Program-made: the position numbers and the translations under genes | The notes under the pieces: model-generated | What the model saw: the letters and a program-made list of their open reading frames with translations, nothing else | Database searches by the model: none | Told to the model about the DNA's origin: nothing | Source of the DNA: an uncultured Pseudomonadota bacterium | Lineage (GTDB): Bacteria; Myxococcota_A; Polyangia; Fen-1088 | DNA length: 64,000 bases | NCBI GenBank assembly: GCA_963847705.1 | Contig: CAWKBC010000029.1 | Coordinates: 324,968-388,967, forward strand | Direction: 5' to 3' | Shown: one piece after another, positions 567 to 5,875 of the stretch | Position numbering within the stretch: the stretch's first letter is position 1 | Layout: each line of letters starts with the position of its first letter

Positions 567-1499
567 ATGCCGGCTTACGCGGTCAACAGCATGCTCGATC
601 TCATCGGCGGGACGCCGCTGGTGAGATTGCGCCACCTCGTCGAGCCCGGGATGGCCGACGTCTTCTGCAAGTGCGAGCAGTTCAACCCGGGCGGCTCGCT
701 CAAGGACCGGGTGGCGCTCTCGATGATCGAGGCGGCGGAGCGCGACGGGAAGATCACGCCGGGCGAGTCGGTGATCATCGAGCCGACCTCGGGCAACACC
801 GGCGTCGGGCTGGCGCTGGTCTCGGCGGCCAAGCGCTATCGCCTCATCCTCACCATGCCCGACAACATGTCGCTCGAGCGGCGCGCGCTCCTCAAGGCGT
901 ACGGCGCGGAGCTGCACCTGACACCGGCCGCGGCCGTCATGCGCGGCGCCGTCGAGCGCGCGCAAGAGCTTGCCGCCGACAACCCGCACGCCTTCATGCC
1001 GCAGCAGTTCAACAACCCGGCCAACGTCGCCGCCCACCAGCGGACCACCGGCCCGGAGATCGTCGCCCAGCTGGGGAACCGCAGCCCGGATGCCTTCGTG
1101 CACGGCGTGGGGACCGGCGGGACGATCACCGGCGTCGGGCGCATCCTGCGCGAGCTGCGCCCCGACGTCCGCATCGTGGCGGTCGAGCCGGAGAAGAGCG
1201 CCGTGCTGTCCGGGGGCCCGCCGGGCGAGCACCGGATCGACGGCATCGGCGCCGGGTTCGTGCCGGCCATCCTCGATCGCTCGGTGCTCTCGGAGGTGCG
1301 GACCATCTCCGAGCGGGACGCGCAACGGACCAAGCTGGCGCTGGCGCGGCGCGAGGGGCTGCTGGTCGGGATCTCGGCGGGCGCCTCGGTGAAGATCGCG
1401 CTCGACGTCGCGCGCGAGCTCGGCCCGGGCAAGACGGTCGTCACCATCCTCTGCGACACCGGCGAGAGATACTTCTCGTCGGACGCTTATTTCGAATGA
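567..1499 (+). CDS. cysK: Cysteine synthase A (O-acetylserine sulfhydrylase family, PLP)
   Basis: IGGTPLV, NPGGSLKDR (PLP Lys), EPTSGNTG, QQFNNPAN, GVGTGGT, GIGAGF, DTGERY motifs. Start at ATG 567 chosen over GTG 474. Confidence 0.9.
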   Translation: MPAYAVNSMLDLIGGTPLVRLRHLVEPGMADVFCKCEQFNPGGSLKDRVALSMIEAAERDGKITPGESVIIEPTSGNTGVGLALVSAAKRYRLILTMPDNMSLERRALLKAYGAELHLTPAAAVMRGAVERAQELAADNPHAFMPQQFNNPANVAAHQRTTGPEIVAQLGNRSPDAFVHGVGTGGTITGVGRILRELRPDVRIVAVEPEKSAVLSGGPPGEHRIDGIGAGFVPAILDRSVLSEVRTISERDAQRTKLALARREGLLVGISAGASVKIALDVARELGPGKTVVTILCDTGERYFSSDAYFE

Positions 1500-2266
1500 G
1501 CGGGCCGTCAGCCGGGAGCGTGCTGATTCTGGGCGCCGGCGGCCTCGGCTGCCCGGCCGCGCTGGCGCTCGCCGCGGCCGGCGTCCTCCGGCTCGGCATC
1601 GTCGACGATGACCGCGTCGACGCCAGCAACTTGCACCGGCAGGTCCTGTTCGCTGACGCCGACGTCGGCGAGCTGAAGGTGACCGCCTTCGCGCGCGCCC
1701 TCGCCCGCCGGTACCCCGCCCTGCGCGTCGAGCCGCACCCGGTCCGCTTCGACGTGACCACGGCTGAGGCGCTGGTCGCGGCGTACGACGTCGTCGTCGA
1801 CGGGACCGACAACTTCGCGGCCAAGTTCCTGGCCAACGACGCGGCCGTGCTGGCAGGAAAACCGCTGGTGCACGGCGCGGCGGTCGCGCTGGGCGGCCAG
1901 ATGGTGACTGTCCCGGGCGCAAAGACGGCGGCGGGCTCTGCCCGACGCCTGGGCGGCCGCCCCTGCTACCGCTGCCTGTTCGAGGAGCCGCCGCCCGCGG
2001 GCGTCGGCCCCTCCTGCGCCGAGGCCGGCGTCCTGGGGCCGGTGCCCGGCGTCATCGGGGCCCTTCTGGGGGTGGAAGCCGCCCGGCTGGCCAAAGGCGA
2101 AACTCCCGCTTTCGTCGGGCGCCTGGTCCAGTATGATTCCCGTTCCATGTCGGTCCGGGCCGTCCGCTTCAACCCCAACCCGCAGTGCGCCGTCTGCGCC
2201 CCCGGAGCGCGGATCCACGCGCTCGCCGCAGCCGACTACCCTGCTGCTGAGTGTTCACCGCAATGA
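1496..2266 (+). CDS. ThiF/MoeB/HesA-family E1-like adenylyltransferase, catalytically intact but lacking the N-terminal helix; no rhodanese domain
   Basis: GAGGLG, DDDRVDASNLHRQ, GELK, DGTDNF, CYRC, PSCAEAG, CAVC. ATG overlaps the cysK stop (ATGA). Confidence 0.9.
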   Translation: MSGPSAGSVLILGAGGLGCPAALALAAAGVLRLGIVDDDRVDASNLHRQVLFADADVGELKVTAFARALARRYPALRVEPHPVRFDVTTAEALVAAYDVVVDGTDNFAAKFLANDAAVLAGKPLVHGAAVALGGQMVTVPGAKTAAGSARRLGGRPCYRCLFEEPPPAGVGPSCAEAGVLGPVPGVIGALLGVEAARLAKGETPAFVGRLVQYDSRSMSVRAVRFNPNPQCAVCAPGARIHALAAADYPAAECSPQ

Positions 2267-3543
2267 CCACCGCCTCAGCCCCCATGAACAAAACCATTCC
2301 CTCCTACGTCGAAGGCCTTCGCTGCCGCGAGTGCGGCTCTGCTTATGACAAGGCGCCCGTTCACGTCTGCGAGATGTGCTTCGGACCGCTGGAGGTGGCC
2401 TACGACTACGCGCGCATCGGCAAGGTGCTGACCCGCGCGGCGATCGAGGCGCGCCCGCACTCGATGTGGCGCTACGCCGAGCTGCTGCCGCTCGACGGGC
2501 CGCCGGCCGTCGGCCAGCAGACCGGGATGACGCCGCTCGTGCGCGCCGAGCGCCTGGCCAAGCGGCTCGGCCTCAAGGAGGTCTGGGTCAAGAACGACGC
2601 CGTCAGCTACCCGACGCTGTCGTTCAAGGACCGGGTGGTTTCAGTCGCCGTGTCGAAGGCGCTGGAGTTCGGCATCGGCACCATCGCCTGCGCGTCGACC
2701 GGCAACCTGGCCAACGCCACCGCCGCCCAGGCCGCCGCCGCGGGCCTGCCCGCCGTCGTCCTGGTCCCCTTCGACCTCGAGCCGGCCAAGATCCTGGGCA
2801 CCAGCATCTACGGCGCGCGCGTGGTCGGCGTCAAAGGGACCTACGACGACGTCAACCGTCTGTGCTCGGAGATCGCCGGCAAGTACGGCTGGGGGTTCGT
2901 CAACGTCAACCTCCGCCCGTTCTACGCCGAGGGGTCGAAGAGCTACGCCTACGAGATCGCCGAGCAGCTCGGCTGGCGGCTGCCGGCGCACGTGGTCGTC
3001 CCGATGGCGGGCGGCTCGCTGGTCACCAAGGTCGGCAAGGCCTTCGGCGAATTCGAGAAGCTGGGCCTGGTCCCGGCGCCCGCGCGCAAGACGCGCATCC
3101 ACGGCGCCCAGGCCGAAGGGTGCGCGCCGATCATCGACATGGTGCTGGAGAACCGCGATCATGTCCGGCCGGTGAAGACGCCGACCAGCATCGCCAAGTC
3201 GCTGGCCATCGGCAACCCGGCCGACGGCTTCTACGCGCGCCAGACGATCATCGGCTCGGGCGGCTGGGCGGCCAAGCCGAACGACGACGAGATCCTCGCC
3301 GCCATGCGGCTGCTCGCCGAGACCGAGGGGATCTTCACCGAGACCGCCGGCGGCGTGACGCTGGGCGCGGCGCTGAAGCTGATCGCCGGCGGCCAGATCG
3401 GCAAGGACGACGGCCCGGTGGTCCTCTGTATCACCGGCAACGGGATGAAGACGCAGGATCCGCTGGTCGGCAAGCTGCCCACGCCGGCGCTCATCGGCCC
3501 GCGATTGAACGACTTCGACGATCTGCAAGCGACCTGGACCTAA
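2263..3543 (+). CDS. Threonine synthase-like PLP enzyme with N-terminal Zn ribbon (possibly carrier-dependent homocysteine synthase)
   Basis: CRECG...CEMCFGPL, PTLSFKDR, ASTGNLA, NVNLRPFYAEGSK, IAKSLAIGNP, TGNGMKT. Confidence 0.85.
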   Translation: MTTASAPMNKTIPSYVEGLRCRECGSAYDKAPVHVCEMCFGPLEVAYDYARIGKVLTRAAIEARPHSMWRYAELLPLDGPPAVGQQTGMTPLVRAERLAKRLGLKEVWVKNDAVSYPTLSFKDRVVSVAVSKALEFGIGTIACASTGNLANATAAQAAAAGLPAVVLVPFDLEPAKILGTSIYGARVVGVKGTYDDVNRLCSEIAGKYGWGFVNVNLRPFYAEGSKSYAYEIAEQLGWRLPAHVVVPMAGGSLVTKVGKAFGEFEKLGLVPAPARKTRIHGAQAEGCAPIIDMVLENRDHVRPVKTPTSIAKSLAIGNPADGFYARQTIIGSGGWAAKPNDDEILAAMRLLAETEGIFTETAGGVTLGAALKLIAGGQIGKDDGPVVLCITGNGMKTQDPLVGKLPTPALIGPRLNDFDDLQATWT

Positions 3544-3556
3544 GGAGACGACAGCT

Positions 3557-3829
3557 ATGGCCACCATTCGTATACCGACGCCGCTTCGCAAGCTGACGCA
3601 GGGCAAAGAGGAGGTGACGGCGACCGGCAGCACGATCGGCGCCGTGATCACCAGCCTCGAGACCCAGTACCCGGGGATCAAGGAGCGGATCTGCGACGAG
3701 AGCGGCCAGGTCCGGCGCTTCGTGAACATCTTCGCCAACGACGAGGACATCCGCTTCCTCAAGAATCTCGAGACGACCGTGAAGGACAGCGACGAGATCT
3801 CGATCGTTCCGGCGATCGCCGGCGGATGA
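3557..3829 (+). CDS. MoaD/ThiS/CysO-family ubiquitin-like sulfur carrier
   Basis: 90 aa, IPTPLR...RFVNIFANDEDIRFL...IVPAIAGG with free C-terminal GG. AAGGAG SD. Confidence 0.95.
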   Translation: MATIRIPTPLRKLTQGKEEVTATGSTIGAVITSLETQYPGIKERICDESGQVRRFVNIFANDEDIRFLKNLETTVKDSDEISIVPAIAGG

Positions 3830-4407
3830 ACGTCGCAGAGGTCCAACGCTTCGCCCGGCAGATCGCGCTCCCCGAGATCGGCCCGGATGGACAGCGGCGC
3901 ATCGGCGCCGCGCGGGTGCTGGTGACCGGCGGCGGCCTCGTGGCCGAGACCGCGGCGTCGTATCTGACGGCCGCCGGGATCGGCCAGGTGGTCGCACGCG
4001 CGGTTCCGCCAGCCGACGGCAACGCCTGGCTGGAGGCGCTGGCGGGGATCGACCTGGTGGTGCGCGCCGGCTTCGACGACGACGCGATGCTGGGTGCCGC
4101 CAAACGCCTCGGCCTCCCGGTGATCGTGGCGCGCGCGATGCCCGCGCAGATCGACGTCATCTCGTTCCCGCGGCGCGCCCCGGCGCCCGAGGCGTCGCTG
4201 GAGGTCCCGCCGCAGGCCGCCACCTCGTCGGCCCCGGGCGCAGCCGACGTCGTCGCCGGAACGCTGGCCGCCGCCGAGGCGCTGGTCCGGCTGGCGCACG
4301 TCGACGGCCCTGTCGACCAAGGCCATCTGGACGGGCGGCGCATCCGCCACCTGCGCCTGCCGCTCGATGGGGGCGCCCCGCTGGCGCAGGAGCTCGGCGC
4401 CTCGTGA
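3826..4407 (+). CDS. Degenerate ThiF/MoeB-like protein (inactive adenylation domain)
   Basis: Keeps RFARQIALPEIGPDGQRRI, VLVTGGG and the VVAGTLAAAEAL helix. Lacks DxD..SNLxRQ, has no cysteines. ATGA-coupled to the carrier gene. Confidence 0.75.
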   Translation: MNVAEVQRFARQIALPEIGPDGQRRIGAARVLVTGGGLVAETAASYLTAAGIGQVVARAVPPADGNAWLEALAGIDLVVRAGFDDDAMLGAAKRLGLPVIVARAMPAQIDVISFPRRAPAPEASLEVPPQAATSSAPGAADVVAGTLAAAEALVRLAHVDGPVDQGHLDGRRIRHLRLPLDGGAPLAQELGAS

Positions 4408-5387
4408 ACGAGCCGATGGACGCCATCCGCCGCGCCCGGCTGCGGGTCGCCGAGCGGGTCACCGATCTCATCGGCGACACGCCGATCGTGCGGCTGCAGA
4501 AATTCGAACGCGACACGCCCGGCGTCGAGCTGTGGGCCAAGTGCGAGTTCCTCAACCCGGGCGGTTCGGTCAAGGATCGCGCCGCCTACCAGATGATCCG
4601 CGACGCCATCCGCACCGGCGCGCTCAAGCCCGGCCAGACGATCATCGATTCGACCAGCGGCAACACCGGCGTCGCCTACTCGCTGATCGGCGGCGCGCTC
4701 GGCTACCCGGTCACGCTGGTGATGCCGGGGAACGTCTCCTGGGCGCGGCGCAAGATCAGCGAAGCGTTCGGCACCAAGCTGGTCTTCTCCGATCCGATGG
4801 AGGGCTCCGACGGCGCGATCCTGCTCTGTCGCAAGATGGTCGAAGAGAACCCCGGCCTCTACTTCTATCCTGACCAGTACTCCAACCTGTCGAACCCGCT
4901 CGGCCACTACAACACGACCGGGCGCGAGATCTGGGAGCAGACCGAAGGGCGGGTCACCCACTTCGTGACCGGCATCGGCACCACCGGCACGGTGATGGGG
5001 ACGGGGCGGCGGCTGAAGGAGTATCGCCGTGACATCGAGGTCTACGCCGTCGAGCCGGCGGACGCGCTGCACGGCCTCGAGGGGCTCAAGCACATGGAGA
5101 GCTCGATCATCCCGGGCATCTATCACCCCGATGAGCTCGACGGCGTGCTGGCGATGGAGACCGACGAGGCGTGGGACGTGTCCGATCGGCTGGCCAAGGA
5201 AGAGGGGCTCCTGGTCGGCCACTCGTCGGGGGCGTCGCTGGCGGGCGGGCTGCGCATCGCCAAGAAGCTGGTGGCCGCCGGCAAACCGGGCGTCATCGTC
5301 ACGCTGTTCCCCGATCGCGCCGAGCGCTACTTCGAGGCGCCGATCCCGCCCCCCAAGCCAACGATGACCGAGAAGTCATCGGCATGA
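4404..5387 (+). CDS. cysM: Cysteine synthase B-like PLP enzyme (CysM-type, probably carrier-dependent)
   Basis: IGDTPIV, NPGGSVKDR, STSGNTG, GIGTTGT, GLEGLKHM. Adjacent to the carrier and JAMM genes. Confidence 0.75.
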   Translation: MNEPMDAIRRARLRVAERVTDLIGDTPIVRLQKFERDTPGVELWAKCEFLNPGGSVKDRAAYQMIRDAIRTGALKPGQTIIDSTSGNTGVAYSLIGGALGYPVTLVMPGNVSWARRKISEAFGTKLVFSDPMEGSDGAILLCRKMVEENPGLYFYPDQYSNLSNPLGHYNTTGREIWEQTEGRVTHFVTGIGTTGTVMGTGRRLKEYRRDIEVYAVEPADALHGLEGLKHMESSIIPGIYHPDELDGVLAMETDEAWDVSDRLAKEEGLLVGHSSGASLAGGLRIAKKLVAAGKPGVIVTLFPDRAERYFEAPIPPPKPTMTEKSSA

Positions 5388-5875
5388 GCGCGCCCGAGAT
5401 GCCGCCGCCCCACCCCACCGTCTCCGTCGAGGCGCTGGCGGAGATGTACGCGCACGCGCGGCGCGACTACCCCAACGAATGCTGCGGCATCGTGTTCGGC
5501 CCCAAGGGAGCGCCGGGCGCCGACCGCGCCGTCGCCTGCGTCAACACGCAGAACGACCTGCACGCGCAGGATCCGGCGACCCACACGCGCGACGCCCGCA
5601 CCGCCTACAACCTCGGCGCGGGCGATCTGTTCAAGCTCGGCAAGAGCCTGCGCGGCGACGCGCCGGCCAAGATCATCTACCACTCGCACGTCGACGTCGG
5701 CGCCTACTTCAGCGATACCGACCAGGCCGCCGCGGTGATGGACGGCGAGCCCTCCTACCCCGTCGAGTACATCGTCATCGACGTCCGGAAGGACAGCGTC
5801 GGCGGCGCCGCGCAATTCGCCTGGGATCCCGACCGTCGCCGCTACGTCGAAGTCGGCCGCTACCCCGCGGGCTGA
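5384..5875 (+). CDS. JAMM/MPN+ (M67, Mec-like) metallopeptidase
   Basis: YPNECCG and YHSHVDVGAYFSDTD (HxH-x7-SxxD). ATGA overlap with the previous gene. Confidence 0.92.
   Translation: MSAPEMPPPHPTVSVEALAEMYAHARRDYPNECCGIVFGPKGAPGADRAVACVNTQNDLHAQDPATHTRDARTAYNLGAGDLFKLGKSLRGDAPAKIIYHSHVDVGAYFSDTDQAAAVMDGEPSYPVEYIVIDVRKDSVGGAAQFAWDPDRRRYVEVGRYPAG

Follow-up and report, generated by a model that had tools for sequence, protein, structure and literature searches.

The stretch of DNA analysed here, a window of 64,000 nucleotides on contig C29 of the genome of an uncultured bacterium of the class Polyangia (6.1 Mb, 85% complete), contains an operon with two genes for proteins related to E1 activating enzymes, which we call E1-A and E1-B. 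E1-A has the catalytic elements of a ThiF/MoeB-type adenylating enzyme and lacks the N-terminal arginine arm, whereas E1-B carries the arm and has neither the ATP-binding loop nor any cysteine. The pair is real, conserved across Myxococcota and under selection. In the reading that we prefer, and to which we give somewhat better than even credence, the two proteins pair into a heterodimer that has a single active site and is kept mainly to activate ThiS, the sulfur carrier of thiamine (vitamin B1) synthesis.

E1-A consists of 256 residues and contains the motif GAGGLG (residues 13–18), the aspartates D37 and D39, SNLHRQ (44–49), K61 and DGTDN (102–106), together with the zinc-binding cysteine pairs C157/C160 and C231/C234 and the ThiF-type cysteine C174 (PSC) of the crossover loop. 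Residues for binding ATP, Mg and Zn are all present. It matches the Pfam ThiF model with 212.9 bits (cut-off 28.1), scores below the NCBIfam cut-offs for MoeB and ThiF, and covers positions 22–237 of the 238 in the Pfam model, the N-terminal RYxRQ arginine arm being missing from its own chain. Its ATG overlaps the stop codon of cysK (ATGA at 1496–1499), and the frame from position 671 to this ATG contains no R[YF]xR[QH] motif. The arginine motif begins 25–27 residues before GxGxxG in 30 loci that a script classed as full-length; among the other 77 loci, three of which are full-length proteins missed by the rule, an in-frame stop lies fewer than 25 codons upstream in nine. An origin of the truncation in a misplaced start codon or a frameshift was rejected. 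The catalytic residues are invariant across 51 rows of the alignment, and the arginine motif lies upstream in none of the best 120 E1-A homologues.

E1-B, of 193 residues, carries RFARQIALPEIGPDGQRRI and VVAGTLAAAEAL, covers positions 1–47 of the Pfam ThiF model and lacks both an NxxRQ loop and cysteines over its whole length, and its R11 is aligned to R11 of ThiF in PDB 1zud. The comparison of the E1-B and E1-A profiles (169 columns, probability 96) shows E1-B to be a whole E1 fold from which the ATP loop has been deleted along with the helices next to it on the C-terminal side; of a ThiF/MoeB adenylyltransferase, it thereby lacks the ATP-binding loop, the lysine and the zinc cysteines. The lengths of both proteins are accounted for by the adenylation fold. 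Across 51 paired rows, GxGxxG is found in 51 E1-A versus 1 E1-B, NxxRQ in 51 versus 0 and the two zinc pairs in 50 versus 0. RxxR is present in 51 of 51 E1-B rows, partly by construction because the rows were picked by that motif, and Arg11 is likewise invariant in the E1-B alignments A1 and A4, whose rows were partly chosen by motif. Among the best 120 E1-B homologues, 117 match R[YFHA]xR[QH], two have RLARQ and one is a fragment; in the 48 partners found with a hidden Markov model (HMM), the finger position is occupied by Arg (45), Lys (2) or Pro (1), and the upstream Arg8 is lost in 12. G145 and A149 of the interface helix are conserved. The original prediction, which had described E1-A as catalytically complete, armless and starting within the cysK stop with no such motif upstream, and E1-B as keeping the arm and the dimer helix with neither SNLxRQ loop nor cysteines, is borne out on each of these points by the motif positions and Pfam coverage, the clean upstream frame and the alignment to ThiF. 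In the preferred reading, each protein is a degenerate copy of a ThiF/MoeB enzyme, and the two complement each other.

E1-B varies in length from 90 to 250 residues, evolves faster than the neighbouring genes and has been lost in one family, f11, as would fit a decaying leftover of a duplication whose complementarity to E1-A arose by chance. The ratios of nonsynonymous to synonymous substitution rates (dN/dS) speak against such decay, lying at 0.14–0.50 for E1-B in all 13 pairs and at 0.15–0.26 for E1-A. Both genes are under purifying selection, and on these values a pseudogene reading of E1-B was rejected. In addition, the same E1-B residues are kept in 15 families, several fusions to E1-A have occurred and E1-B is lost jointly with E1-A, leaving the idea of a decaying remnant very improbable.

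The co-occurrence of the two genes was read in 77 Myxococcota genomes with truncated E1-A, namely 44 of a sample of relatives that includes the source genome, 20 of a phylum sample and 13 of a class sample. E1-B is found in 64 of the 77, across 15 families, and outside family f11 in 64 of 64. In four of these it lies on another contig through assembly breaks, and in two both E1 genes are kept though unlinked. The copy of G008, an assembly rich in indels, has a frameshift, and in two fragmented genomes E1-B is seen and the contig ends before E1-A. None of the 30 loci with a full-length E1, among them one with the same operon and a single intact E1 (G038), has a separate E1-B. A second route, confined to the best 80 of 598 loci and possibly overlapping with the first set, yielded 52 loci with a truncated E1-A, of which 48 have E1-B (Sorangium cellulosum So ce56 included), three are cut at the contig end and one has no partner in 1.1 kb; the 28 full-length loci of this route are all without E1-B. 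When 601 stretches were scanned with one divergent E1-B, no relative came up. The named homologues of both proteins come from Polyangia. Among the variants, E1-A of So ce56 (L257:2663-4906) has a 12-residue repeat in about six tandem copies at its C-terminal end and Ala for the last Gly of its P-loop, and in G053 (L068:4945-6606) E1-B continues in frame into about 400 further residues.

Family f11 marks the limit of this coupling. All 13 of its E1-A loci are without E1-B, and a genome-wide profile search in six of the 13 genomes, with 150 candidates scored per genome out of 152–366, returned full-length MoeB only. Every ATP-site and catalytic residue is nevertheless retained in 13 of 13 f11 E1-A proteins. 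Furthermore, the arginine fingers of MoeB (Arg14) and ThiF (Arg11) are reported as not essential in the accessible text of PMC13139853, which cites Lake 2001 and Nagy 2016, and the same text gives a drop of 26% for an arginine-finger mutant of yeast Tcd1, a protein required for the stability of Tcd2. These points weigh against an obligate pairing, and they would also suit an E1-A that needs no E1-B for activity and works as a homodimer or together with the full-length rhodanese-MoeB that the source genome encodes with an arm of its own; E1-B would then be dispensable, a modulator or decoy controlling the amount of active enzyme by binding to E1-A or MoeB. We regard this explanation as improbable. 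Interface position 189 is occupied by a bulky residue (F, H or M) in 11 of 13 f11 E1-A proteins versus Ala or Gly in 41 of 43 others, which suggests remodelling after the loss of E1-B; the genomes with E1-A/E1-B fusions described below lack rhodanese-MoeB; and the finger arginine of E1-B is kept even where Arg8 is lost. The tree places the f11 proteins inside the paired E1-A lineages, and because of this placement, the retained ATP site and the bulky residue 189, f11 appears to have lost E1-B secondarily and to have remodelled the interface. The solo E1-A proteins (L074, L076, L186-L196) have CTD or CSD in place of GTD, and the family offers a natural test of E1 activity without the arginine arm.

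Given the solo E1-A of f11 and the non-essential fingers, E1-B is best read as a scaffold with an accessory arginine, and a strict need for Arg11 is doubtful. The original prediction had proposed an obligate active/inactive heterodimer and had named E1-A kept in the absence of E1-B as evidence against it. The pair itself stands, being conserved in 64 of 77 genomes, fused in six and predicted to bind, but the word obligate is unsupported because 13 f11 genomes keep an intact E1-A alone, exactly the situation named, and because the finger is reported to be non-essential.

E1-A and E1-B are fused in one chain in six genomes, in the order B–A in G083, G142, G089 and G137 and in the order A–B in G052 and G063. 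These fusions fall at four places in the tree, with weak deep support, and a homologue search with the G142 fusion returned one further B–A fusion (P0252) among 63 hits. The fusion is the sole ThiF-family match in G052 and the sole one above 180 bits in G063, G083 and G142. An AlphaFold model of the G083 fusion, built from a 25-row alignment in which five rows cover the B half, has a predicted local distance difference test score (pLDDT) of 86 and a predicted template modelling score (pTM) of 0.90; an alignment of the fusions with free E1-B rows was left unused, as the E1-B rows landed on the catalytic half, and a single-sequence fold of the G142 fusion was unsuccessful (pLDDT 32). Our structural comparison, in which 1000 chains were re-aligned, reveals BilD as the best match to the G083 model (Z 31.6, root-mean-square deviation (rmsd) 3.5, 352 residues aligned, 17% identity), followed by UBA6 (Z 28.6, rmsd 3.0, 359 residues) and Uba1 (Z 28.3, rmsd 3.3, 361 residues), while for single chains of ThiF and MoeB the aligned length is 222 residues (Z 26.8 and 26.7). 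The model thus supports a fold of the fused form like that of the joined inactive and active adenylation domains (IAD and AAD) of BilD and UBA1. Other fusions involve further genes of the operon: in G040 (L041:2931-3992) E1-A is fused to the carrier, ends in Gly-Gly-Arg-Ser and is followed by E1-B and JAB, and in family f28 (L114, L116, L122, L167, L168) E1-B and the JAB protease are joined in one reading frame.

The two separate proteins of the window are also predicted to bind each other. Folded together with ATP and Mg, they reach a complex score of 0.92 versus 0.00 for the best of three controls, with at least 98% of contacts agreeing between runs and a partner pLDDT of at least 87. The mark applied to this score is reached by 116 of 157 solved pairs and 2 of 215 mismatched pairs, counts that apply approximately to these alignments. 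At the core of the predicted interface, E1-B helix 142–150 contacts E1-A helix 182–193, and the interface list includes E1-B 7–12 and E1-A 43–50. Two points temper this result: the pass may reflect likeness to MoeB and ThiF, because the homodimers of both are solved, and the controls comprised neither A–A nor A–MoeB while the output gives no Arg11–ATP distance. Overall, a heterodimer of E1-A and E1-B is highly likely.

In the mechanism that we envisage, the helices of E1-B and E1-A would pack against each other as they do in the dimer of MoeB, with the arm of E1-B predicted to lie against the SNLHRQ loop of E1-A, and Arg11 may reach the phosphates of ATP. Arg11 and the scaffold would raise rate or stability and would not be strictly required. 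E1-A would adenylate the C-terminal glycine of the carrier, and a separate sulfur donor would make the thiocarboxylate, the pair having no rhodanese domain. The source genome contains one further E1, the rhodanese-MoeB on contig C38, and two carriers besides that of the operon, both with internal Gly-Gly in in-frame fusions: ThiS-ThiG on contig C3 (G000:C3:8134-9264) and MoaD-MoaE on contig C21 (G000:C21:23766-24452). ThiS-ThiG is likewise fused in G144 (L210), a 97% complete genome with no ThiF-family match at E 1e-25. Since ThiS is in frame with ThiG, its Gly-Gly must first be freed, plausibly by the JAB protease of the operon. Cleavage of carrier fusions by JAB proteases is known from the MoaD-MoaE case. 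The rhodanese-MoeB would serve the operon carrier and MoaD.

The assignment of ThiS as client is based on gene content. In a class sample of 201 genomes, 177 have ThiG and 24 do not (20 listed and four identified from family tallies). Truncated E1-A was found in none of the 24 ThiG-less genomes, of which 17 were covered in one search and three and four in two others, the four at a stricter threshold. Among 42 ThiG-bearing genomes chosen from the 177, truncated E1-A is present in 32 (13 loci read, the rest taken from the profile range) and a partial match in one. Weak ThiF matches in the ThiG-less G226 and G297, and matches at G137:C10 and G183:C148, were set aside as unrelated E1-like proteins. 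Fisher's test on 0/17 versus 33/42 gives p ~1e-8, a value that is too strong, as related genomes are not independent observations. In the phylum sample, ThiG occurs in 22 of 23 pair carriers versus 44 of 63 others. MoaE, taken as a control, is kept in 11 of the 24 ThiG-less genomes and lacking in 4 of 56 E1-A genomes. In four ThiG-bearing genomes without the pair (G031, G213, G145 and G257), another ThiF lies beside thiS/thiG.

The competing client is the MoaD-like carrier of the operon itself, the setting of the original prediction. In this alternative, the heterodimer would form and would mainly serve this carrier, feeding CysM and the ThrC-like enzyme, or would serve all carriers alike. E1-B directly follows the carrier gene in most operons, the E1-A–carrier fusion of G040 and the E1-B–JAB fusion of f28 point in the same direction, and a class of operons that combine E1, carrier, JAB and cysteine synthase has been described (PMC1779556, in its accessible part); in G083 and G142, which have two carriers, the fusion is the only strong E1. 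However, six ThiG-less genomes (G080, G098, G110, G120, G270 and G297), 95–100% complete and from four families, keep cysK-carrier-(cysM)-JAB with both E1 genes cleanly gone, seven genomes of other classes have such an operon without either E1 gene, and no operon carrier was matched in eight pair-bearing genomes, seven of which have ThiG. Since loss of the pair goes along with loss of ThiG and leaves the operon carrier in place, the operon's own carrier is not supported as the client, and we consider this alternative unlikely, although it is the strongest of those weighed. ThiS is the likeliest reason for keeping the pair in Polyangia and need not be its only client; given that the heterodimer forms, ThiS is quite probably its main client.

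Several observations weigh against ThiS. In 18 of the 24 ThiG-less genomes the operon carrier is not confirmed, so that ThiS and carrier are not separated by them; of ten ThiG-less genomes searched for the operon carrier, seven gave no match and one a distant match only, and such carrier-negative genomes cannot tell the two clients apart, as the carrier is unmatched there. G063, 94% complete, has the fusion with no match for ThiG or MoaE. ThiG and the operon occur in the absence of the pair in the seven genomes of other classes, and an adjacent E1 is found at 0 of 20 further thiG loci, both of which indicate that ThiS can be activated otherwise. Furthermore, the pair adjoins the operon carrier rather than thiS, G083 and G142 each have two carriers for one strong E1, and ThiS is C-terminally blocked by ThiG in the source genome. 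The sampled genomes are, moreover, incomplete and related to one another.

The features of the operon are collected in Table 1. Its genes follow each other in the order cysK, E1-A, thrC-like, MoaD-like carrier, E1-B, cysM and JAB protease, with start–stop tetramer overlaps at five of the six junctions; the thrC-like gene is absent from many related operons in the gene maps. The name cysK for the first gene is our assumption, taken from its likeness to the cysM open reading frame (ORF) and from recognition. Just upstream, an open-ended ORF on the minus strand (window:1-353) resembles the start of what we take to be an insertion sequence (IS) transposase, and the ordinary-looking genes downstream (window:6000-16852) presumably encode a glycoside hydrolase with a Gly/Ala/Thr-rich linker, hemE/hemH/hemY-like proteins and carB. 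A promoter and terminator scan gave no signal above chance. Public sequencing runs contain relatives only, with a share of at most 0.27, and contigs of three metatranscriptomes span pieces of the operon, by which transcription is not demonstrated.

Table 1. Features of the E1-A/E1-B operon, with positions in the window
Feature	Position	Strand	Basis
cysK-type cysteine synthase, first operon gene	567..1499	+	ORF and ATG
E1-A, catalytic ThiF/MoeB-type adenylation subunit without N-terminal arginine arm	1496..2266	+	256 residues
SNLHRQ ATP-binding loop of E1-A, within predicted interface	1625..1642	+	sequence and complex model
thrC-family pyridoxal phosphate (PLP) enzyme (threonine synthase family)	2263..3543	+	TIGR00260 above cut-off
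MoaD/SAMP1-like sulfur carrier, free Gly-Gly end	3557..3829	+	sequence and family scans
E1-B, putative catalytically dead E1-fold subunit with arginine arm and dimer helix	3826..4407	+	193 residues
Arg11 codon of E1-B, arginine-finger position (ThiF Arg11; MoeB Arg14)	3856..3858	+	
E1-B helix 142–150 (VVAGTLAAA), core of predicted interface with E1-A helix 182–193	4249..4275	+	
cysM-type cysteine synthase	4404..5387	+	best match TIGR01138, below cut-off
JAB/Mec-type protease, last operon gene	5384..5875	+	Pfam Prok-JAB

A possible starting point of the split is seen in Nitrospirota, where four loci (L263, L264, L266 and L288) show the order cysK-E1-thrC-carrier-E1(-JAB) and a complete E1 occupies each of the places that E1-A and E1-B hold in the window; such a double-E1 operon would be the state from which reciprocal decay starts. 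In a 96-row tree, from which 20 near-duplicate and 18 further rows had been dropped beforehand, 47 of 52 truncated domains cluster together with no full-length E1 among them (Shimodaira–Hasegawa-like approximate likelihood ratio test (SH-aLRT) 85), and the Nitrospirota copies are not resolved as sister of the E1-A group, so the order of events rests on gene order. The pair is probably a new two-gene form of asymmetric E1 of independent origin. More tentatively, Myxococcota may have evolved a eukaryote-like active/inactive E1 independently within sulfur metabolism, with all stages still living (two intact copies in Nitrospirota, split, fused in the order of UBA1 and in the opposite one, and solo) and with the split pair as the missing ThiF that sorts ThiS from other carriers, a proposal we hold at a little under even chances. 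If true, the origin of E1 asymmetry would become directly testable. With its fused, split, duplicated and solo forms, the pair offers a small system of about 450 residues for measuring the contribution of the inactive half and of its arginine and for asking how asymmetry arose in E1s. In addition, the activator of the thiamine pathway would be identified for a large class of bacteria, and a widespread 'hypothetical protein' would gain a function.

Among known systems, E. coli ThiF-ThiS and MoeB-MoaD (PDB 1zud, 1zfn and 1jw9) share the adenylation fold, motifs, zinc site and ThiF-type cysteine with E1-A and the arginine arm with E1-B, and the sulfur-carrier chemistry of the pair would be theirs. 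Reviews present ThiF and MoeB, and the E1s of bacterial sulfur carriers in general, as homodimers (PMC12355090 and PMC11354881, accessible parts) with two active sites (PMC12355090), whereas here the parts are distributed over two genes and would make one site. E1-A is nearer to Uba4, MoeB and ThiF (E 1e-45 to 1e-32) than to UBA3 and SAE2 (1e-14 to 1e-13). BilD of the BilABCD defence system (PDB 8tz0 and 8tyz) is the one bacterial asymmetric E1 that we found in print, a single IAD–AAD chain in phage defence whose inactive domain supplies Arg9, and the accessible text of PMC10557695 terms all other bacterial E1-like proteins homodimers. An arginine from the inactive partner is likewise proposed for our pair. 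BilD differs in its single chain, a helical CYS insertion of about 80 residues, accompanying E2 and deubiquitinase (DUB) genes and protein conjugation, while the pair of the window is encoded by two genes with no CYS insertion in E1-A, belongs to central metabolism and lies among cysteine synthases, ThrC, carrier and JAB; family scans confined to the operon genes found no E2 there. IAD and AAD in one chain, the trait of BilD, occur only in the fusions of relatives. Among the E1, carrier, JAB and cysteine synthase operons described in PMC1779556, as far as its accessible part extends, a two-E1 or inactive-E1 form does not figure, and no description of a two-gene active/inactive bacterial E1 pair was found in the literature searched, a search with subscription papers mostly outside its scope. 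The eukaryote-like asymmetry put forward in the original prediction thus holds for an active/inactive pair from separate genes, as judged by their sequences, while asymmetry as such was already known in bacteria from BilD.

Our comparison with eukaryotic enzymes reveals the same division into active and inactive halves in the heterodimers SAE1-UBA2 and NAE1-UBA3 and in the single chains UBA1 and UBA6. Canonical eukaryotic E1s contain FCCH, SCCH and UFD domains, none of which is present in E1-A or E1-B; the pair is therefore not a member of that family, although its sequence indicates that it functions as their adenylation core does. Yeast Tcd1-Tcd2, a ThiF-family pair acting in the synthesis of the tRNA modification cyclic N6-threonylcarbamoyladenosine (ct6A), is likewise a pair of paralogues with one active site, in which the inactive subunit provides stability and a non-essential finger, and differs in being eukaryotic, in its tRNA substrate and in having both subunits full-length, with no N-terminally truncated active subunit reported, according to the accessible text of PMC13139853.

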